This document shows, one piece after another, positions 9,407-54,738 of a stretch of 64,000 bases of DNA (position 1 is the first letter of the stretch; every line of letters starts with the position of its first letter). The notes beneath the pieces were generated by a model. It was not told the DNA's origin, did not search any database, and was given only the letters and a program-made list of their open reading frames with translations. The stretch is from Bacillota bacterium (GTDB lineage Bacteria; Bacillota_I; Bacilli_A; RF39; UBA660): contig DOEC01000035.1 of the NCBI GenBank assembly GCA_003524085.1, positions 7,796-71,795 on the forward strand, read 5' to 3'. Made by a program: the position numbers and the translations under genes.

Positions 9407-9414
9407 ACTAATAT

Positions 9415-9620
9415 AAGTTTTGTTGACAAAAGAGTAGTAATTAACATTTCTTTTATAGAGAGTTAGTGTTAGGTGCAAACTAACAAAGAAAGTTAATGAA
9501 CTTGCTTTTAGAAAAACTTCGCTAGTAAGCGTTATAACTATAAAGATGCATAATACTTTATGAATTAAGGTGGTACCGCTGTAGTTTGCAGTCCTTAAGT
9601 CATAAAGTTTATTTTTTTGA
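9415..9620 (+). promoter_or_regulatory. T-box riboswitch leader (Leu-tRNA sensing) upstream of leuS operon
   Basis: Stem I AGAGA element near 9466; conserved T-box sequence AATTAAGGTGGTACCGC at ~9563-9580; T-run terminator 9607-9617; CUU/CUC codons in the specifier region. Confidence 0.6.
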
Positions 9621-12734: not shown

Positions 12735-14222
12735 ATGAAAAACAAACAATTAACATTAGTTGTAGTAAGCCTTTTAGTAGTAGTACTAAGTGTATCACTA
12801 GCATGGTTTACAACTCAAATAATAGGAAAGGGAAAAGATGTAAGTGTAACAAGTGCTAACTTACAAATAGTATTTACAGATAGTGATGGAGCTTTAACAG
12901 AAACTGATATAGAACCAGGCTGGCAAAAAACTAAAACATTTACTATTAAAAATGATACTAAGACAGAATACAAATATAATATAGTAATAAAAGACTTATT
13001 AAATACTTTTGTAACAGAAGGATACTTACAATACAAGATAACTAGTACAAACGATGGATACAATATGACTGAGTTTAAAGATATACCAAAGTCAAGTACA
13101 CCTAAAGATACAATACTAGCTTATAGTGTAGTAATACCTAATGGAGTAACACAAAGTTACACTATTGAATTTAAGTATGCAAACGATGAAAGTGTAGACC
13201 AAAGTGTAGACATGAATAAAAAACTAAGTGGAACACTATTTATAACTGAGGGAACAGAACAACCTACGCTTTTAATTCAATTGCTTGCTGACAAATCAAC
13301 AGTATTAACAAGAACAGACTTTAGTACAGTTTTAACAGATAATAATACAAACACATTATATACTTCTACTGAAGACAGTAAAACAGTATATTATTTTGCA
13401 GGGAATGCAACAGATAACTGGGTAAAGTTTGGAAAGAATGCAAGTAATCAAGACTTATACTGGAGAATAATAAGAACAAACTCAGATGGAAGTGTAAGAT
13501 TACTATATCACGGTACAAGTACAACAGCAACAGACGCATATATAGGAACATCACAATTTAATAGTAGTTATAATAATATAGCATATGTAAGTTATATGTA
13601 TGGAAATTTAGGAAGTGTTGCAAATGCTAGAACTAACCAAACAAACTCTAGTACAATAAAAACAACAATAGATAACTGGTATACAAGCAACTTAGAAGCA
13701 AAAGGTTATACAAAATACTTAAGTACAACAGCAGTATATTGTAATGATAGAACATATACAGTATCTGGAAATGACACATACTTTGGAGCATACACAAGAC
13801 TAAAAACAAATAAAACACCAACATACGACTGTGCAACAACAGAAGACAAATTCACAGCAGATAGTAGTACTGGAAACGGGAAACTAACATATCCAATAGC
13901 ATTAATGACAGCAGACGAAGTAAGTTTTGCAGGTGGACTATACGGTACAAATGCACCAACATGGTATTATAATAGTGCAAACGGAAGCTCTACAGGTAAA
14001 ACTACTTGGTGGTTGTTGTCTCCTAACTATTGGGGTGGCAGCTACACTTACGTGTTCAGCGTGTACGGTTCCTCCGATCCTGGCAACTTGGGCGGCAACG
14101 ACATCCACGACACTTACGGGGTGCGTCCAGCCCTATCATTAAAATCATGTGTGAAATACTCTAGTGGAGATGGCTCAGCAAGTGACCCATACACAATAAA
14201 AGAAACTACAAGTGGATGCTAA
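12735..14222 (+). CDS. secreted Ser/Thr/Asn-rich protein; N-terminal region weakly TasA/camelysin-like; contains a compositionally foreign GC-rich C-terminal segment
   Basis: signal/anchor MKNKQLTLVVVSLLVVVLSVSLAWF; RBS GAGAGGT; 495 aa. Confidence 0.6.
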   Translation: MKNKQLTLVVVSLLVVVLSVSLAWFTTQIIGKGKDVSVTSANLQIVFTDSDGALTETDIEPGWQKTKTFTIKNDTKTEYKYNIVIKDLLNTFVTEGYLQYKITSTNDGYNMTEFKDIPKSSTPKDTILAYSVVIPNGVTQSYTIEFKYANDESVDQSVDMNKKLSGTLFITEGTEQPTLLIQLLADKSTVLTRTDFSTVLTDNNTNTLYTSTEDSKTVYYFAGNATDNWVKFGKNASNQDLYWRIIRTNSDGSVRLLYHGTSTTATDAYIGTSQFNSSYNNIAYVSYMYGNLGSVANARTNQTNSSTIKTTIDNWYTSNLEAKGYTKYLSTTAVYCNDRTYTVSGNDTYFGAYTRLKTNKTPTYDCATTEDKFTADSSTGNGKLTYPIALMTADEVSFAGGLYGTNAPTWYYNSANGSSTGKTTWWLLSPNYWGGSYTYVFSVYGSSDPGNLGGNDIHDTYGVRPALSLKSCVKYSSGDGSASDPYTIKETTSGC

Positions 14223-14328
14223 GATCCCATTAACTTAACTGTGTCTAATGATTAATTTACTAATATAATTACTATAAAGTAACTTAATATTTAATTGATA
14301 ATGTATATAATAAGAAAAACTAGTAAAA

Positions 14329-14435: not shown

Positions 14436-17400
14436 ATGTTCGAAAAAGAAAATGATTATGTAACTAATAGAAAAATGTATCTTGATAATAAAGATTACAT
14501 TCTTAAAAGATTTGCTTACTCTGATATCATACGTGGTGAATTAATAACTAGCTATAGTATAGAAGTTACTGATGAACATGACTATCCTGATAAAGGTTAC
14601 ACGGACTACTGTTTTGAAACTAATTCATACTATTATGATGTTGGTAAATATAGACAAGTAATAAGAAAAAATGATGCTGGAGAAATATTATCCTACTCTT
14701 GTAACTGTAGTAACTTTAGAGATACTAATTCATGTGTTCACTTAGTAGGATGTTTTCATAACTATGCATTTTTAATTTTCTATGCTAAACCAGATCCATT
14801 AAAAATATCAAACAATATTTTAGACATACTTTCAAAATCAAATAAACCTGTAGTTAAAAAAGAAGTATTCTTATCAGTTGACATACTATCCTCTTCAATA
14901 GACTTTTATTATGATGTTAAAATAAAAGTAGGTATTAATAAGATGTACTCATACAATAACAAACAAAACCAATTCTTACAGGCGTCAAATAGAAAAGATG
15001 ACGAGTTCACTTTTGGTAAAGATTTTACTTTTGATTTTAACAGCAATTACTTTAGTGAAAAAGCTACAAAAGTATTAAAATACATAAATAGATTTCATCC
15101 TGACTTAAATAAAAACAATTTTGATGATAAAGAAATAAATAATTTTCTAGATTTATTAAAAGAACAAGATTACCCTTTCACATATAATAATCATAACATA
15201 ACTAAAATACTAGAAGAATTTCCTCTTGAAAGTACAGTAGAAGAAATGGATCAAGATAACTACATAGTTAACTTTGATTTAAAAGACTACAAACTAATTA
15301 GTTATAACTATGCATACAATAATTCTAATATTTACTATTTATCTAACAAAGACATATCACTATTATTTTTATTATATAAACAAAATATGTCTAGTTTAAT
15401 CATACCCAAAAATAGATTAAAAGACTTCTCTAGTGGTGTACTTCCAATAATAAAAAAACATGTAGAAGTAAATGAAAACCTAAAAGATAAAATACAAATA
15501 ATTAATGAACCAGATGTATCTTTATACTTTGACTTAAATAAAGATAATGTTATATGTAATATAAAACTAAAATATAATGAAGAAATAGATTACTTTGATA
15601 ACAAAGCTAATGTACTAAGAGATGTGGAATTTGAAACCAATTTAATTAGTTACTTACAAACTTTTGGTTTTATCATAAATAATAAAAAGATTATAATGAA
15701 TGATTTAGATAAAATAGTATATTTAATAGATGAAGGACTAAACTTAATAAGTAAAAAATATCCTGTATACACTACTGAAAACTTTAAAAAACTAGGTTTA
15801 AAGAAAACTAAAGTATCTAGTACATTCTCGATAGGAAAAGATAACATATTAAGTTATGATTTTAATTTAGATGGAATAAGTAATGATGATATAGTAAATA
15901 TATTTAAAAGCATTAAAGAAAAAAAGAAATACTATAAGTTAAGTAATAATCAAATAGTAGATCTAGAAGACAGTGATTTAAATGAATTAATGAATCTAAC
16001 TGAAGAACTAGATATTACTGACGAAGACATAATAAATGCTAAAGGTTCAGTTATGAAATACAGGGCTATTTATTTAGACAGTATTAAAGATAGCAAGTAT
16101 TCTATTATTAAAACAGACAACTTATTTAAAGAGTTTATTAATAACTTTCATCAATATAAAGATGCTAATTTAACTCTTACAGCTGATGAGTTAAAAACAC
16201 TCAGAGACTACCAAATAACCGGTGTAAAATGGCTTTATAACTTAGATAAATGTTCTTTTGGTGGAATACTAGCTGATGAAATGGGTCTTGGTAAAACAAT
16301 ACAACTAATCTACTACATAAAACAAATGTTAAAAGAAGATAATACTTACAAATTCCTAATAGTAGTACCAACTAGCTTACTTTATAACTGGGATAGAGAG
16401 TTTGAAAAATTTGCACCTGATATTCCAGTAAAAATAGTAAATGGTATAAAAACCAAAAGACAAGACTTAATAGAAAATACAAACAAAAATGTCTACATTA
16501 CAACCTATGGTCTATTAAGAGAAGACTTAGAGTACTATGAAAAAATGCACTATCATGCTGTTATATTAGATGAAGCTCAAAACATAAAAAATCCACTAGC
16601 TGGCACAACAAAAGCATGTAAAAGCATGAAAGCAGATGTTAAGTTTGCATTAACAGGAACTCCTATAGAAAACTCAGCTGTTGAATTATGGAGTATATTT
16701 GACTATATCATGCCAGGATACTTATCTAAATATGATAAATTCACTAGTAAATACAAAGTAAAAGAATTTGATGAAGACACAAACAAACTACTTGATAGTT
16801 TATCTAAACAAATAAGTCCATTTATATTAAGAAGAAAAAAGAAAGACGTTATAAAAGAACTTCCTGAAAAAATAGAAACAAATATATTTATAGAGTTAGG
16901 TGATGAACAAAAGAAAATCTATGTAGCAGAACTAAACAAAGTAAAAGAAGCTATTGAAGAAGCCCTAAATGATGGTGGAATGTCTAAAGTTAGATTTATG
17001 ATACTTCCCCTTCTTACGAAACTAAGGCAAATTTGTATAGATCCTAAAATAGTATATAGTGATTATACTAGTGGGTCTAATAAAATAGATAGATTCTTAA
17101 GTGTAATAGAAGAAGTAACAAATAATGGCCATAAAGTACTAGTGTTCACTTCATTTAGAACAGCACTTAACTTAGTAAAAGATAAGCTTGATAGTATTGG
17201 TATAAAGTCATACCAAATAGATGGGTCAGTATCTAGTAAAGAAAGACAAACTAGAGTAGATAACTTTAATAATAATGATGACGTTAAAGTATTCTTAATA
17301 ATGCTAAAAAGTGGTGGAACTGGACTTAACTTAGCTTCTGCTGATATAGTTATTCACCTAGATTTATGGTGGAATCCACAAGCTGAAAACCAAGCAACAG

Positions 17401-17612
17401 ACCGTGCACATAGAATTGGACAAAAAAACACTGTTGAAGTAATAAAATTAGTTTCAAAAGGGACAATTGAAGAAAAAGTACTTGATTTACAAGAAAAGAA
17501 AAAAGAACTAAGTAATAGACTAATAGACTCAAATAACATGGATCAAAACATCATCAGTGAACTAACAGAAAAAGACATCAAAAACTTACTTGCTTTTGAA
17601 AACAAAGACTAA
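14436..17612 (+). CDS. SNF2/SWI2-family helicase with N-terminal SWIM zinc finger
   Basis: SWIM CNCSNFRDTNSCVHLVGCFH; SNF2 motifs LRDYQITGVKWL, ADEMGLGKT, DEAQNIKN; helicase C motifs GGTGLNLASADIV and TDRAHRIGQ. Confidence 0.9.
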   Translation: MFEKENDYVTNRKMYLDNKDYILKRFAYSDIIRGELITSYSIEVTDEHDYPDKGYTDYCFETNSYYYDVGKYRQVIRKNDAGEILSYSCNCSNFRDTNSCVHLVGCFHNYAFLIFYAKPDPLKISNNILDILSKSNKPVVKKEVFLSVDILSSSIDFYYDVKIKVGINKMYSYNNKQNQFLQASNRKDDEFTFGKDFTFDFNSNYFSEKATKVLKYINRFHPDLNKNNFDDKEINNFLDLLKEQDYPFTYNNHNITKILEEFPLESTVEEMDQDNYIVNFDLKDYKLISYNYAYNNSNIYYLSNKDISLLFLLYKQNMSSLIIPKNRLKDFSSGVLPIIKKHVEVNENLKDKIQIINEPDVSLYFDLNKDNVICNIKLKYNEEIDYFDNKANVLRDVEFETNLISYLQTFGFIINNKKIIMNDLDKIVYLIDEGLNLISKKYPVYTTENFKKLGLKKTKVSSTFSIGKDNILSYDFNLDGISNDDIVNIFKSIKEKKKYYKLSNNQIVDLEDSDLNELMNLTEELDITDEDIINAKGSVMKYRAIYLDSIKDSKYSIIKTDNLFKEFINNFHQYKDANLTLTADELKTLRDYQITGVKWLYNLDKCSFGGILADEMGLGKTIQLIYYIKQMLKEDNTYKFLIVVPTSLLYNWDREFEKFAPDIPVKIVNGIKTKRQDLIENTNKNVYITTYGLLREDLEYYEKMHYHAVILDEAQNIKNPLAGTTKACKSMKADVKFALTGTPIENSAVELWSIFDYIMPGYLSKYDKFTSKYKVKEFDEDTNKLLDSLSKQISPFILRRKKKDVIKELPEKIETNIFIELGDEQKKIYVAELNKVKEAIEEALNDGGMSKVRFMILPLLTKLRQICIDPKIVYSDYTSGSNKIDRFLSVIEEVTNNGHKVLVFTSFRTALNLVKDKLDSIGIKSYQIDGSVSSKERQTRVDNFNNNDDVKVFLIMLKSGGTGLNLASADIVIHLDLWWNPQAENQATDRAHRIGQKNTVEVIKLVSKGTIEEKVLDLQEKKKELSNRLIDSNNMDQNIISELTEKDIKNLLAFENKD

Positions 17613-33784: not shown

Positions 33785-33815
33785 AAAAAGCCCTTGTTAC
33801 AAGGACTTATTAACA
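33785..33815 (-). terminator. hairpin + U-run downstream of tRNA-Gly
   Basis: minus strand GTCCTTGTAACAAGGGC followed by TTTTTTATATTTT. Confidence 0.4.
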
Positions 33816-33820
33816 TTATT

Positions 33821-33895
33821 TGGAGCAAGCGATGGGAATCGAACCCACGTCTCAGCCTTGGCAAGGCCGCGTACTAGCCGTTGTACTACGCCTGC
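33821..33895 (-). tRNA. tRNA-Gly (anticodon GCC), CCA encoded
   Basis: minus-strand GCAGGCG-TA-GTAC..GTAC-G-CGGCC-TTGCCAA-GGCTG-AGAC-GTGGG-TTCGATT-CCCAT-CGCTTGC-T-CCA folds as cloverleaf; anticodon loop TTGCCAA. Confidence 0.9.
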
Positions 33896-34031
33896 ACTTG
33901 TTTTTTCAAAATGCATAAATATCATATCATAAATTATTAGAAAAAACAAGTGTAAAATTTGTGTAAAAATCTAATATTTTGTTTGACTATTTTACTTTTT
34001 TATTATACACTTTCTATAGAGGGTAGGAAAT

Positions 34032-35037: not shown

Positions 35038-35124
35038 TAAAGTAGCCTTTTTATAGGTTGCTTTTTTCTTTATCTTTGTATATAATATTTACAGAAGATA
35101 TGAAACGAAAGGAGTATTTTATTC

Positions 35125-35270
35125 ATATTTAGCGCCAGAACCATAAGTGGTTGACGAGGTTAACAGTTATCGATTTTTCGGCGGATGCTGTTACGGATAA
35201 GTAGTTCGTTAGAAGTATTACAAAAAGTAAAATCAATATTACAACAAAATATACTTCATGCTAAATTTTT
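35125..35270 (+). ncRNA. glmS ribozyme (GlcN6P-sensing self-cleaving riboswitch)
   Basis: core AGCGCCAGAAC...GGTTGACGAGG...CGGCGGATG immediately upstream of glmS. Confidence 0.75.
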
Positions 35271-35288: not shown

Positions 35289-37034
35289 ATGTGTGGTATC
35301 ATTGGATACGTAGGAGAAAAGAGATGTAGTATAGATGTAATTATAGATGGGCTTAAGCACCTAGAATACAGGGGTTATGACAGTGCAGGTATAGCTTATG
35401 TTAAAGATAATAATGTTGTAATAGAAAGGGAAGTAGGTAGAATTAGTAATCTAGAGAGTGTTCTTAAAAAAGACACTTCTCATATAGGAATCGGGCATAC
35501 TAGATGGGCAACTCATGGTAAACCAACAAAAGAAAATGCTCATCCTCATAAGGTAGGCAATATTACTTTAGTACATAATGGAATTATTGATAATTTTATG
35601 GAGTTAAAAAGCACTCTAATGAGTGAAGGCTACACTTTCAAAAGTGACACAGATACTGAAGTAGCTGCTGCTTACATTGATTCTTTATATAAAGAAAATA
35701 ACGATATGATTAAGAGTTTAAGTATATGTGTTAATAAGTTTTTAGGTAGTTATGCTTTTGGCATTATTAATGAGTTAGAAACAGATGTATTATATGCTTT
35801 AAGAAAAGATAGTCCATTAATTATTGGTGTAGGAGAAAATGAAAACTTTATTGCAAGTGATGTGCCATCTATTTTAAAGTATACTAATAAGTATATTGAT
35901 ATAGAGAATGACGAAATAGTTAAAATAACAAAAGATAAAGTTACTGTATATGATAAGAATTGCAATATCATTAATAAAGAAATAAGCGTGTTTGAAGGGG
36001 ATGCTAATTTAGTAGAGAAGAATGGTTATGAGACATACATGCTTAAAGAAATACATGAAGAAGCAGAAGTTATAAAGAAGACTAGTGAAGCAAGTATTGA
36101 CTTTGATATAACAAAGTATGATGAAATAGATATAGTCGCTTGTGGAAGTGCTTATCACGCTGGACTAGTTGGTAAATACATGATAGAAAAACTATGTAAC
36201 ATAAAAGTGAATGTATGTATTGCAAGTGAATACCAATACGATAAACATTTTTATAAAGGTAAAACTTTAGTTATAGCAATAAGTCAAAGTGGGGAAACTG
36301 CAGACACAAAAAAATGTGTTAATATTGCAAATGATATGGGTGTTGATACTTTAGGAATTGTTAACGTTAAAGGAAGCAGTATTGCTAGAATATGTAAACA
36401 TGTTATATATACTTTAGCAGGTCCTGAAATAGCAGTGGCAACAACAAAAGCTTATCTAGCACAAATCACAACACTTATACTACTTGCAGTTAAAAATAGT
36501 AAAGAAAAAATAAATACTGAAGACTTGCAAAAACTACCTTATTATATAGAAACTCTAATTAACAAAGATTATACTTCTCTTGCAAATATGCTTTATACAA
36601 AAGACGACATCTACTTTATTGGTAGAGGAATAGATTATGCTCTTTGTATGGAAGGAAGTTTAAAACTAAAAGAAATTAGTTACATTCATAGTGAAGCTTA
36701 TGCAGCAGGAGAGTTAAAACACGGGACAATTTCATTAATTAGTGAAGGAACACCTGTTATAGTATTTGCAACAAGTGATGAGTTATACTTAAAAACAATA
36801 AGTAATGCTAAAGAAGTTAAAGCAAGAGGTGCTTATGTAATACTAGTAACTGATAAAGAAGTTATTAATGAAGGAGTTTATGACGAGTTAATTAGTATTC
36901 CTAAAGTAACTGAAGAATTAAGACCAATCTTAACAATTATACCTTTACAATTAATAAGTTATGAAGTTGCTAAGTTAAGAGATAATGATATTGATAAACC
37001 TAAGAATTTGGCTAAGAGTGTAACAGTGGAGTAA
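35289..37034 (+). CDS. glmS: glutamine--fructose-6-phosphate aminotransferase
   Basis: N-terminal MCGIIGYVG (Ntn Cys1), two SIS domains. Confidence 0.95.
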   Translation: MCGIIGYVGEKRCSIDVIIDGLKHLEYRGYDSAGIAYVKDNNVVIEREVGRISNLESVLKKDTSHIGIGHTRWATHGKPTKENAHPHKVGNITLVHNGIIDNFMELKSTLMSEGYTFKSDTDTEVAAAYIDSLYKENNDMIKSLSICVNKFLGSYAFGIINELETDVLYALRKDSPLIIGVGENENFIASDVPSILKYTNKYIDIENDEIVKITKDKVTVYDKNCNIINKEISVFEGDANLVEKNGYETYMLKEIHEEAEVIKKTSEASIDFDITKYDEIDIVACGSAYHAGLVGKYMIEKLCNIKVNVCIASEYQYDKHFYKGKTLVIAISQSGETADTKKCVNIANDMGVDTLGIVNVKGSSIARICKHVIYTLAGPEIAVATTKAYLAQITTLILLAVKNSKEKINTEDLQKLPYYIETLINKDYTSLANMLYTKDDIYFIGRGIDYALCMEGSLKLKEISYIHSEAYAAGELKHGTISLISEGTPVIVFATSDELYLKTISNAKEVKARGAYVILVTDKEVINEGVYDELISIPKVTEELRPILTIIPLQLISYEVAKLRDNDIDKPKNLAKSVTVE

Positions 37035-47869: not shown

Positions 47870-48592
47870 ATGAGAAATGAAGTGCAAGAAATATATATAA
47901 ATTTAGATGATTCTGGTAAATTAAGTTCTAAAGAAGACATTAGTGTGTATGGCGGTGTCGTATTTTTAAGTAAAAAAGAGAAAGATAAATTTATAACTCA
48001 GTATAAAAAGATTATAAATGAGGTCAAGTGTGAATACTGCAAGATATGTAATCACGCCTGTCCTGAGATTAAAAATACAAATATTAAGCCAGAACATAAG
48101 CGTTGGTTAATGAATTACATTAAAAATTATTTTGTAGTTGGGTTAATAATTGAAAATAAAAAGGTGTATGAAGAAATATTACAAAGTAAGGCATCAAAAG
48201 GAAGATTTACTGATTATGCTATTCGTAGGCTTATTAAAGAAATATTAAAGTCACTAATTAAAGAAGGCAAAATCGATCCATATAAGCCTGTTAAGATTGT
48301 ATTAAATATAGACCAACAAAGTACAAAAAGTAATGGATATTATAATTTACGTGATGGTATATTAGAAGAGCTTAAATATGGAATATCTGCCTACAATTAT
48401 TCTGTTAAGAGAAAGAAAATAGTTTACTCTGATTTAGATATTTTAGTTACTTATCAAGTATCTGCTAAGAGTTATGTTATTCAAGCAGCTGATTTACTAG
48501 CAGGTACAATAAGAAGAACTGTACTTGACAACATTGAAAACTATGGAAGAGCTTTATCAAAATTTGTGGACTTAAAAATAAAACTTCCATAA
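47870..48592 (+). CDS. DUF3800-family protein (paralog of preceding gene)
   Basis: LDDSGKL...GGVVF and IQAADLLAG motifs. Confidence 0.65.
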   Translation: MRNEVQEIYINLDDSGKLSSKEDISVYGGVVFLSKKEKDKFITQYKKIINEVKCEYCKICNHACPEIKNTNIKPEHKRWLMNYIKNYFVVGLIIENKKVYEEILQSKASKGRFTDYAIRRLIKEILKSLIKEGKIDPYKPVKIVLNIDQQSTKSNGYYNLRDGILEELKYGISAYNYSVKRKKIVYSDLDILVTYQVSAKSYVIQAADLLAGTIRRTVLDNIENYGRALSKFVDLKIKLP

Positions 48593-48595
48593 AAG

Positions 48596-48620
48596 AAAAA
48601 AAGCCATTACTGGCTTTTTC
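48596..48620 (+). terminator. rho-independent terminator AAAAAGCCA-TTAC-TGGCTTTTT
   Basis: read directly from the sequence. Confidence 0.6.
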
Positions 48621-48862
48621 CCAATTAGGGCGGCGTACTTAGAATTACGCTTAAATATAAATATTCGCGACCTAACTATCGACCTGACGAGATTTCTCTC
48701 CGGTAATACAATAATACACTATTTTTATTAAAATGTCAAACATAATTTGACATTGTGTCAAGAAAACAGTTACATTTTGTATTATTGTATATAAATATTA
48801 TATGCGTTATATGCCTAATTATACTTTATTAAAAAAGTAAATATATAATGTTTATATCAATA

Positions 48863-48903: not shown

Positions 48904-50307
48904 TTATCTTCTATCATTTAAAGTAATACCAATTTCCTTTAATTCATCTCTAATCTTGTCAGACTCAGCATAATTTTTTTCTTCTCTATACTTATTTCTA
49001 ATACTTTGTATAATGTTAATTAACTCAGCTTCCTTATTAGAACTTGTCTCTGTAAAAGATAGACCCAAAATATCTTCAGCATACTCACTAATGAAGTTAT
49101 TATAACTTATTAGTTTATCAATATTCTTACTTGTTTGAAGTTCAGTATTCGCAAGCTTAATTATCTCATACAAATAAGTAATTGCAAGTCCTGTGTTAAA
49201 GTCGTCATCCATTGCTTCAGTAAACTTCTTTTTTAAGTTACTAACAGTTTCATCATCACTTATATATTCATCCACATCTTTAATAGCATTTCTTAAATTA
49301 TTAACAGTTTCACTAACTTTCTTAAATTGTTTTTCAGTATCAAGTAGTTGTTCATCATTAAAATCTGTTGGCTTTCTATAATGGTTTTGTAGTATATAGA
49401 AACGTACTACCATTGGGTTATACTTTTTAAATAAGTCATCAAGAGTTATAAAGTTTCCTAAACTCTTTCCCATCTTTTGCCCGTTTACTGTTACTAAATT
49501 ATTATGTATAAAGTAGTTAACAAAAGTTTTTCCAGTTAATGCTTCACTCTGCGCGATTTCACACTCGTGATGAGGAAATATGTTGTCCATTCCTCCTCCA
49601 TGAATATCAAAAGTATCGCCTAAATATTTTCTACTCATTACTGAACACTCAATATGCCATCCAGGATAACCTTCTCCCCATGGACTAGGCCACTTCATAA
49701 TGTGCCCGTTTTCAGCCTTTTTCCAAAGTGCAAAATCAGCAGGATTTTCTTTGTCAGTTGCAACTTCAATTCGCTCACCACTCAAAGTATTATCAAGTGT
49801 TCTATTAGATAAACTTCCATACTTAGTAAACTTGTTTATTCTGTAGTACACATTGCCTTCTTTAGTCGCATAAGCATATCCTTTATCAATAAGTGTTTGC
49901 ACGTCTTTTATAATCTCAATAATATGTCCAGTAGCTCTACAACTAATACTTGGCTTTAAAACATTTAACTTTCTCATATCTTCAAAGTAAATATTCTCAA
50001 ACTTGTATGCAATTTCAACTGGGTCAATACTCTCAAGTTTTGCAATTCTCTCAATTTTATCTTCTCCACTTTCAGCATCTCCTACTAAATGTCCTACATC
50101 TGTTATATTTTGTACATACTTAACTTTATATCCTAAATGCATTAAATATCTATAAATAACATCAAAACTAACATAACTTTTAGCATGCCCTAAATGTGGA
50201 TAACCATATACAGTAGGTCCACATACATACATTCCAACTAGCCCTTCATGAATACTTTTAAATTCTTCTTTTCTTCTAGTAATAGTGTTGTAAACTACTA
50301 AACTCAT
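48904..50307 (-). CDS. cysS: cysteinyl-tRNA synthetase
   Basis: HIGH region GYPHLGHAKSYVSFD; KMSKS as KMGKSLGN; start at M20 (MSLVVYNTITRRKEEF) with GAGGTG RBS. Confidence 0.9.
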   Translation of the reverse strand: MSLVVYNTITRRKEEFKSIHEGLVGMYVCGPTVYGYPHLGHAKSYVSFDVIYRYLMHLGYKVKYVQNITDVGHLVGDAESGEDKIERIAKLESIDPVEIAYKFENIYFEDMRKLNVLKPSISCRATGHIIEIIKDVQTLIDKGYAYATKEGNVYYRINKFTKYGSLSNRTLDNTLSGERIEVATDKENPADFALWKKAENGHIMKWPSPWGEGYPGWHIECSVMSRKYLGDTFDIHGGGMDNIFPHHECEIAQSEALTGKTFVNYFIHNNLVTVNGQKMGKSLGNFITLDDLFKKYNPMVVRFYILQNHYRKPTDFNDEQLLDTEKQFKKVSETVNNLRNAIKDVDEYISDDETVSNLKKKFTEAMDDDFNTGLAITYLYEIIKLANTELQTSKNIDKLISYNNFISEYAEDILGLSFTETSSNKEAELINIIQSIRNKYREEKNYAESDKIRDELKEIGITLNDRR

Positions 50308-50434
50308 AAATCCACCTCTTTCGTATGTAAATATTATATCACATAAATCTAAAATGTAGTACATAAATTATAATGGAAGTGGACAATAACACAAAAAAAT
50401 GGTAAAATTTAAATAGTAAACTGAAGGTGAAAAA

Positions 50435-54140: not shown

Positions 54141-54716
54141 ACCTCCATACGAGCCTTCCGTTTAAAATAAACCAGGCATATCTATGCTCCAGCACCTTGC
54201 TCATGAATAAATTATAGCATATCATTTACTAAAAGTAAACACTATATAAAAATTGTTAACATAAACATAATTAAATATGCAATAAAAAAGACGAGTTACC
54301 TCCATACGAGCCTTCTGTTTAAAATAAACTAGGCAAAGCTATGCTCCAGCAACCTGTCATGTATAAATTGTAGCATATCATTTACTAAAAGTAAACAACT
54401 AAAAAGTATCTTTTTAAGCATATAATTGTGAAAGTAAAATAAAAAAAGGAACGAGCTACCTCCATGCGAGCCTTCCGTTTAAAATAAACCAGGCAAATCC
54501 ATGCTCCAGCAACCTGTCCATGTACAAATTATAACATATCATTTACAAAAAGTAAACAAATAAAAAGTATCTTTTAAGTGCTAAAATAGTAGAATAAAAT
54601 AAAAAAGAACGAGTTACCTCCATACGAGCCTTCCGTTTATGATAAACCAGGCATAGCTATGCTCCAGAAACTTGTTCATGAATAAATTATAACATATCAT
54701 TTACTAAAAGTAAACA
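54141..54716 (-). repeat. array of four tandem ~160-bp repeats (conserved ~100-bp cores at 54141-54241, 54298-54397, 54458-54558, 54616-54716), each with a minus-strand TTTACT-17nt-TATAAT promoter and short leaderless ORF
   Basis: direct visual alignment of four copies; periods 157/160/158 bp. Confidence 0.8.
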
Positions 54717-54738
54717 AATAAATTTTTGAAAAATATAC

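Follow-up and report, generated by a model that had tools for sequence, protein, structure and literature searches.

Positions 14010 to 14132 of the window, by which the whole 64-kb stretch of analyzed DNA is meant, very probably constitute the variable region (VR) of a target gene of a diversity-generating retroelement (DGR). The compositional anomaly that marks this region is real and far above chance. The interval from 14030 to 14139 is 58.2% GC, compared with a mean of 27.4% (standard deviation, 5.5) for all 110-nt intervals of the 64 kb, giving a z score of ∼5.6 and the first rank in GC among them; the second-ranked interval (33789 to 33898; 51% GC) corresponds to a tRNA. The 41 codons from 14010 to 14132 have a GC3 of 0.73 and a GC of 0.57, compared with values of 0.16 and 0.32, respectively, in the remaining 454 codons of the gene, and the GC3 of host codons is 0.19 (12,594 codons from the other open reading frames [ORFs] in the window). 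The sharp discontinuity in GC and codon usage that had been described in an earlier, sequence-only reading was therefore borne out, and the gene (495 amino acids, forward strand) and the peptide quoted from it (encoded at 14031 to 14135) also match their description. The limits then assigned to the segment, 14030 to 14150, were slightly displaced; the segment is present, but homology to a template repeat (TR) spans 14010 to 14132.

Paralogs of the gene in other AT-rich genomes use the same GC-rich scaffold codons, and the differences between them fall mainly in bases 1 and 2 of C-ending codons. These differences fit AAC template codons, and a TR with AAC at each variable codon was therefore predicted. 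The prediction was made from VRs alone and was scanned for as the pattern GGCAACTTGAACAACAACAACRTYAACAAC. Exact matches to GGCAACTTGAACAACAACAACRTYAACAAC were identified in five GTDB genomes (MAGs of uncultured gut Bacilli or 'Eubacteriales'), and a related TR pattern matched in 11 metagenome contigs, for a total of 16 related gut Bacilli loci. The matching TRs are non-coding stretches without A-to-N changes that are nearly identical between samples. They comprise 13 AAC, three AAT, one AGC, and one ACT codon together with 23 A-free scaffold codons. No stop codon can be reached by mutagenesis of A in the TR, and the theoretical diversity is ∼1e20.

In every locus with flanks examined (L004, L007, L008, L013, and L026), cassette genes were found 3′ of the TR. 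The TR is followed by one or two small ORFs, one of which has a MutS_I domain. L007, L004, and L026 carry a MutS_I ORF of 133 to 139 amino acids and an ORF of 118 amino acids, the latter without a Pfam match in L007; in L013 and L008, a single MutS_I ORF lies between the TR and avd. Matches to MutS_I were above the cutoff for ORFs of 139 amino acids (E value, 6e−7) and 120 amino acids (E value, 2e−7), corresponding to the MutS-like (MSL) class. An ORF of 114 amino acids was bAvd-like (PF22296; E value, 5e−6), with a score of 27.4 bits that lies under the curated 40-bit cutoff. Reverse transcriptases (RTs) of the RVT_1 family (365 to 371 amino acids; E values, 6e−15 and 2e−14) were encoded directly downstream of the TR in L007, L008, and L026, where the contig was long enough. 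The RTs of L007 and L008 carry IGN(Y/M)(S/T)SQ and YMDD motifs, of which the SQ motif is a usual mark of RTs from DGRs. Directly upstream of the TR in L013 and L026 is a gene that belongs to the family of the window gene and encodes 492 or 502 amino acids. GC-rich TR and VR flanks, runs of AAC, remote targets, and MSL accessory genes have previously been described in DGRs (PMC5758913).

Differences between VRs and TRs were concentrated at template adenines. Across seven VR/TR pairs located on the same contig, ∼440 nt apart, 126 of 241 template adenines differed, compared with 20 of 620 other positions (P = 5e−61), and the changed adenines were replaced by G (n = 70), T (n = 47), or C (n = 9). 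The VR and TR of L012 differed at 23 of 34 adenines and at none of 89 other positions. L013 and L015, which derive from different samples, differed at eight positions over 2,759 nt. Each of the eight lies within the VR and coincides with a TR adenine, and recent mutagenic retrohoming in this DGR family is thereby shown directly.

The TRs compared with the window VR come from related genomes and not from the window's own genome. The best of these TRs is shared without any difference by L010 and L026. Relative to it, the window VR keeps 18 of 34 adenines and is altered at the other 16, with changes at four of 89 non-A positions; relative to the L007 TR, changes were found at 17 of 35 adenines and nine of 91 other positions (P = 6e−6). 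An ortholog, L024, occupies the same genomic slot as the window gene (LeuRS, small ORF, target, and SNF2 helicase) and has flanks that are 97 to 98.5% identical. Its VR differs from that of the window at 20 of the 34 positions that are adenine in the TR and at six of the 89 others (P = 3e−9). Because the difference is concentrated at TR adenines in the context of such closely related flanks, the window locus was rewritten by the DGR after the strains diverged. The VR/TR relationship, its adenine specificity, the make-up of the cassette in relatives, recent activity of the family, and adenine-specific divergence at the window locus are all matters of observation, and each testable defining feature of a DGR is present.

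No TR, RT, Avd, or MSL was detected in the 64-kb window. For the cassette proteins, a six-frame scan for YxDD and tblastn with RT, Avd, MSL, and ORF118 as queries were negative. Exact and 3-mismatch pattern searches, a repeat search, blastn with a word size of 7, and an A-tolerant sliding comparison revealed no second copy of the segment, and the window contains no second paralog. Given that the cassette is absent from the window, the window gene would be a remote (trans) target, and any cassette in this genome would have to lie over 14 kb away on the upstream side or over 50 kb away on the downstream side. A precedent for such an arrangement is L025, a remote paralog in a slot between MurT and PolA. 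It shows 15 adenine and no non-adenine differences from the TR but has no cassette within 3 kb, and these adenine-only changes show that copies distant from the cassette are genuinely targeted in trans.

The features of the gene and its VR are collected in Table 1. In the VR core, A-free scaffold codons (TGG, GGC, GCT, GTG, TTC, GGT, TCG, TCC, CCT, TTG, and GTC) are interleaved with the mutagenized ones. An alignment of 38 homologs sharing 82 to 99% identity showed an entropy peak at amino acids 424 to 460, where variable and invariant positions are likewise interleaved, and the pattern over this region is WWLLSPxxWxGxxAxVFxVxGSSxPGxLxxxxVxxTxGVRPA. At the 3′ end of the VR, TR homology is lost beyond the GC-rich block, 90 nt before the stop codon of the target ORF; an IMH with a GC-rich start has been described (PMC5758913). 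In cassette-proximal VRs the flank is ATTTCTCTCAAATCTTGT and TR homology continues into it, and the divergence of the window from this flank at 14133 to 14153 may have functional meaning. No inverted repeat or hairpin was identified in the span from 14090 to 14300, which covers the 3′ end of the VR and sequence downstream.

Table 1. Features of the probable DGR target gene, its protein, and its VR (nucleotide positions are those of the window)
Feature	Position	Strand	Description
DGR target gene (probable)	12735..14222	+	ORF, 495 aa; same family as cassette-adjacent targets in L013 and L026
Hydrophobic signal or anchor	aa 1-27		N-terminus of target protein; ...SLAWFT motif
Beta-sandwich domain (predicted)	about aa 43-172		AF2 model, pLDDT 70-88
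DUF6273, carries the VR	aa 412-471		C-terminal; Pfam, E value 8.8e-6, 26.1 bits (cutoff, 23.5)
VR, GC-rich segment (very probable)	14010..14132, 123 nt	+	Matches A-masked TR; GC 0.57
VR 5' constant flank	14010..14024	+	TGGTTGTTGTCTCCT; encodes WLLSP; A-free in TR, identical to TR
VR mutagenized core	14025..14116	+	Opposite 16 AAY codons, AGC, and ACT of TR
VR 3' constant GC-rich segment	14118..14132	+	GGGGTGCGTCCAGCC; encodes GVRPA; IMH-like; one G>A relative to TR (CCG>CCA)
Sequence directly 3' of VR	14133..14153	+	CTATCATTAAAATCATGTGTG; 'ALSLKSC' class; diverged from ATTTCTCTCAAATCTTGT

More than 7000 homologs of the target protein were recovered by protein search, many of them 82 to 99% identical. 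A profile search with the target protein against PDB sequences returned no match, and its N-terminal domain had no match in Pfam, NCBIfam, or PDB sequences. The AF2 model, built from 28 close homologs, was confident in the N-terminal sandwich and poor across the C-terminal half, with the DUF6273 domain reaching a pLDDT of only 50 to 75 on that alignment. The N-terminal domain was considered as a candidate TasA/camelysin-like fiber domain, and the LA(Y/W)FT motif that follows the hydrophobic segment resembles SipW-type signals. The target protein would act in binding, either secreted or at the cell surface. Among DGRs, DUF6273 has been published as a target domain, and it has been equated with the C-lectin fold (PMC10743442). 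The target-gene family occupies at least five conserved genomic slots, and at least two copies were found on one 124-kb contig. The 5′ half of the target gene contains mosaic patches common to paralogs, and ordinary short-patch conversion between paralogs seems to occur elsewhere in the gene, beyond the VR.

In the proposed mechanism, the TR would be transcribed and the TR RNA copied by the RT into cDNA, with misincorporation opposite template adenines. This cDNA would overwrite the VR homologous to it, which lies toward the 3′ end both in the target gene and in several paralogs elsewhere, such that mutagenic retrohoming would act in trans. The cassette responsible is expected outside the window, in the order target, TR, MutS-like ORF, small ORF, bAvd-like ORF, and RT. 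Approximately 18 codons of a DUF6273 domain, presumably surface exposed and ligand binding, would be randomized, and the scaffold residues would be left untouched.

The GC richness of the segment can be traced to the composition of the TR, which is 50% GC, and 69% GC at non-A positions, in a locus of 27% GC with an RT gene of 25% GC. AAC and AAT codons hold 32 of the 34 TR adenines, and the 23 scaffold codons have none. With adenines confined to variable codons, the scaffold is A-free and the A-ending codons preferred by the host are excluded. The scaffold GC3 was 0.74, compared with 0.28 expected from host usage of A-free synonyms (P < 1e−5). Adenine avoidance is therefore insufficient as the whole cause, which argues for extra nucleotide-level selection for G/C in the TR scaffold. 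Such selection is in keeping with the GC-rich constant flanks and IMH that have been described for DGRs in general (PMC5758913). The G/C preference, together with the GC-rich ends of the TR, would presumably aid homing, and pairing of the cDNA with its target, where the genome is 27% GC, and the stability of that pairing in AT-rich DNA may be the reason for the preference. A-to-N mutagenesis, mostly A to G and A to T, would then lift GC from ∼50% in the TR to ∼57% in the VR; the window VR is 57% GC and other VRs range from 52 to 63%. The window segment would accordingly owe its GC richness to templating by a GC-rich TR, further raised by A-to-N mutagenesis.

The window VR may be rewritten rarely or occasionally, as suggested by its four non-A mismatches to the best TR and by three copies of the same strain, recovered from other samples, in which the VR is unchanged. 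There is a substantial chance, although the lesser one, that it is a relic, i.e., that it was written by the DGR at an earlier time, that this copy or genome is no longer diversified, and that the GC-rich patch is slowly decaying toward AT. In line with decay, three of the four non-A mismatches are G to A (GCT>ACT, GTC>ATC, and CCG>CCA), the other being G to C. The 3′ flank of the window VR, CTATCATTA, belongs to the 'ALSLK' class and lacks ATTTCTCT, through which the TR homology of cassette-proximal VRs continues. The remaining VRs in the class carry four to eight non-A changes, with six to eight in L002, L028, and L023 and 3-nt indels in L002 and L028. The absence of a cassette from the 14 kb on the upstream side and the 50 kb on the downstream side would also suit a relic. 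However, the flanks of the three same-strain copies are 100% identical, such that little time has elapsed and their identical VRs are uninformative. L024 also falls in the ALSLK class, yet its differences from the window VR lie mainly at TR adenines while its flanks differ by just 1.5 to 3%, which argues for fairly recent rewriting. Nor are non-A differences and 3-nt indels peculiar to relics; they are common in active multi-target DGRs, and in cellular systems of this kind non-A changes and in-frame indels beside AAC have been reported (PMC5758913). The window genome probably still carries a cassette, and the window copy may still be an efficient target.

Three origins had been offered for the segment from its sequence: recent import from a high-GC donor, nucleotide-level selection by an embedded element, and gene conversion from a paralog. 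A DGR mechanism was not among these options. The first of these, by which a short stretch would recently have been imported or recombined in from a high-GC source, is refuted under the criterion set in the earlier reading itself. The sharp compositional discontinuity, and nothing else, speaks for it, whereas the GC-rich scaffold is shared by all examined paralogs and orthologs from equally AT-rich relatives and recurs in a non-coding TR whose neighboring genes are 25% GC. A phage or plasmid origin was rejected, as the VR/TR skeleton pattern had no matches in viral contigs and the segment matched no phage or plasmid sequence by blastn. The second option was partly right, in that a DNA element is involved (the VR is dictated by the non-coding TR), but this is not a structured RNA. 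A structured RNA or regulatory DNA element that sets the composition independently of a retroelement could explain nucleotide-level constraint at synonymous sites, as seen in the scaffold GC3, but the TR/VR relationship already accounts for that constraint. The RNA structure prediction on both strands that had been suggested gave no support, since folding of neither strand exceeded shuffled controls (z scores of −0.25 and +2.41); Rfam had no match at the segment, and the span scanned from 14090 to 14300 contained no inverted repeat. Such an element is highly improbable. Gene conversion from a paralog anticipated the one-directional overwriting correctly but not its donor, which is a non-coding TR acting via RNA/cDNA with adenine-specific errors. 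Ordinary, possibly GC-biased, conversion among dispersed paralogs, without reverse transcription, would suit a multi-copy family with at least five genomic slots and the paralog-shared mosaic patches in the 5′ half of the gene. It is nevertheless very unlikely as the source of the VR, as it cannot confine differences to the sites where a non-coding template has adenine and does not explain why the TR is linked to a cassette with RT, Avd, and MSL.

As a DGR, the system shares several features with the prototype of Bordetella phage BPP-1 (mtd VR, avd, TR, and brt). Both have a VR of ∼120 nt at the 3′ end of a gene for a ligand-binding protein, an AAC-rich TR, adenine-specific TR/VR differences, and GC-rich constant ends, and the loci related to the window encode an accessory protein of Avd type along with an RT bearing IGxxxSQ and YMDD motifs. 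The BPP-1 DGR is phage borne, whereas the window system is chromosomal with several remote targets. The gene order of BPP-1 also differs from that of the present cassettes (target, TR, MSL, ORF, Avd, and RT), no GC-rich hairpin was found downstream of the window VR, and DUF6273 takes the place of Mtd as target domain. In organization, the system resembles the Treponema denticola TvpA DGR and the 'Lineage 4' cellular DGRs with remote targets (Wu et al. 2018; PMC5758913). In these systems, as here, one cassette serves several scattered chromosomal paralog targets, there is no phage association, and some targets carry non-A substitutions and in-frame 3-nt indels beside AAC. The host here is instead an uncultured AT-rich gut Bacilli lineage, and the target architecture is different. 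A small MutS_I-domain ORF together with avd is also found in Legionella-type DGRs with MSL (PMC5758913), although in the present cassettes the number of small ORFs between the TR and avd varies by locus. The same target domain, DUF6273, is present in gut-phage targets (tentaclins and Mtd-like target2 proteins; PMC10743442). In those phage proteins it lies N-terminal to Ig domains, whereas here it is C-terminal in a cellular protein, after a signal peptide and beta-sandwich.

A known mechanism, the DGR, accounts for the GC oddity, and the current understanding of DGRs is unchanged by it. What began as a compositional anomaly becomes a specific, testable annotation, namely a remote target of a DGR in the genome of an uncultured member of the gut Bacilli. 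The case also offers a practical signature of VRs for genomes that are very AT rich: a short island, GC rich, poor in A, and with C-ending codons, located toward the 3′ end of a gene for a surface protein. This signature works even when the RT and TR are distant or on another contig. The scaffold GC3 of 0.74 against 0.28 quantifies TR composition beyond adenine avoidance and bears on the template needs of the retrohoming machinery. A broader picture can be put forward tentatively, and is on balance doubtful. A single chromosomal DGR in uncultured AT-rich gut Bacilli may diversify in trans at least five dispersed paralogs, which would combine a TasA- or pilin-like, fiber-forming beta-sandwich with a C-terminal DUF6273 domain and could act as hypervariable fiber-tip or matrix adhesins of a Gram-positive commensal. 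The TR would be held at high GC by selection beyond adenine avoidance, and VRs that are not rewritten (the ALSLK class, including the window VR) would decay toward AT. If this is true, the composition of a VR could be used as a clock of the time since its last retrohoming.

The target gene differed by 15 to 21 nt from its copies in three same-strain loci recovered from other samples (L020, L021, and L022), the 3-kb flanks of which were 100% identical. All of these differences fell in short clustered patches within the 5′ half of the gene, and some of the patch variants also occurred in paralogs at other loci. The patches look like the product of short-patch gene conversion between dispersed paralogs, which looks like a second diversification route, separate from the diversity-generating retroelement (DGR).

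An SNF2 helicase gene was found downstream of the target gene in both the window and L021, where the annotation beyond it includes KAP NTPase, TIR, and endonuclease genes. In L020 the upstream flank was identical, but DNA polymerase I directly followed the target gene, the same arrangement as in the MurT-slot paralog locus L002. The SNF2 helicase region is apparently a defence-like island that varies between strains and has inserted beside the target gene.

In related loci that carry the DGR cassette, the order was target, template repeat (TR), MutS-like accessory ORF (MSL), ORF118 where present, accessory variability determinant (Avd), and reverse transcriptase. Two small ORFs lay between TR and avd in L007, L004, and L026; one encoded a 133- to 139-amino-acid MutS_I-domain protein of the MSL class, and the next, ORF118, a conserved 118-amino-acid protein that in L007 had no Pfam match. 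L013 and L008 carried only a single MutS_I ORF in this interval.

Among the RNAs and repeats elsewhere in the window, the DUF3800-I motif adjoins a 486-amino-acid ORF (48904 to 50364, minus strand), and the tandem array had no Rfam match at the gathering threshold.

Features of the window and, where a locus is named, of related loci
Feature	Position	Strand	Remarks
T-box leader	9414–9599	+	Upstream of LeuRS gene
Beta-sandwich, target protein N terminus	12860–13250		Amino acids 43–172; confidently modelled
Difference patches, target gene	12803–12857, 12924–12928, 13444, 13569–13572		Versus L020, L021, L022
SNF2-family helicase	14436–17612		Downstream of target gene; further ORFs follow
tRNA	33824–33895	−	Explains second-highest GC peak
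glmS ribozyme	35120–35267	+	Upstream of 581-amino-acid ORF at 35289
DUF3800-I RNA motif	48587–48711	−	Rfam, 66.6 bits (gathering score 44.2)
Non-coding tandem array	54141–54722		3.7 copies, 158-nt unit, 84% matches; between two ORFs
Small cassette ORFs, L007	4260–4616, 4613–5032	−
Small cassette ORFs, L004	740–1512
Small cassette ORFs, L026	5182–5936
Small cassette ORF, L013	1389–1790	−
Small cassette ORF, L008	2377–2739

Four homologs of 808 to 816 amino acids (P0003, P0005, P0111, and P0116) contained the entire 495-amino-acid architecture, including a segment like the variable region (VR), and ran on past that segment (...GVRPVISIKGDNLWKSGDGTASSPYEIVTD...) for ∼300 additional residues. The VR is therefore internal rather than C-terminal in some paralogs. 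The modelled beta-sandwich gave weak fold matches to donor-strand-exchange fibre subunits (the TasA fibre, Pyrobaculum bundling pili, CFA/I and CS17 pilins, and archaeal cannulae), and the signal region of the target protein carries an LA(Y/W)FT motif, which we take to resemble SipW-type signals. Together, the weak matches and the motif raise the possibility that the DGR targets of this family are fibre-forming adhesins.
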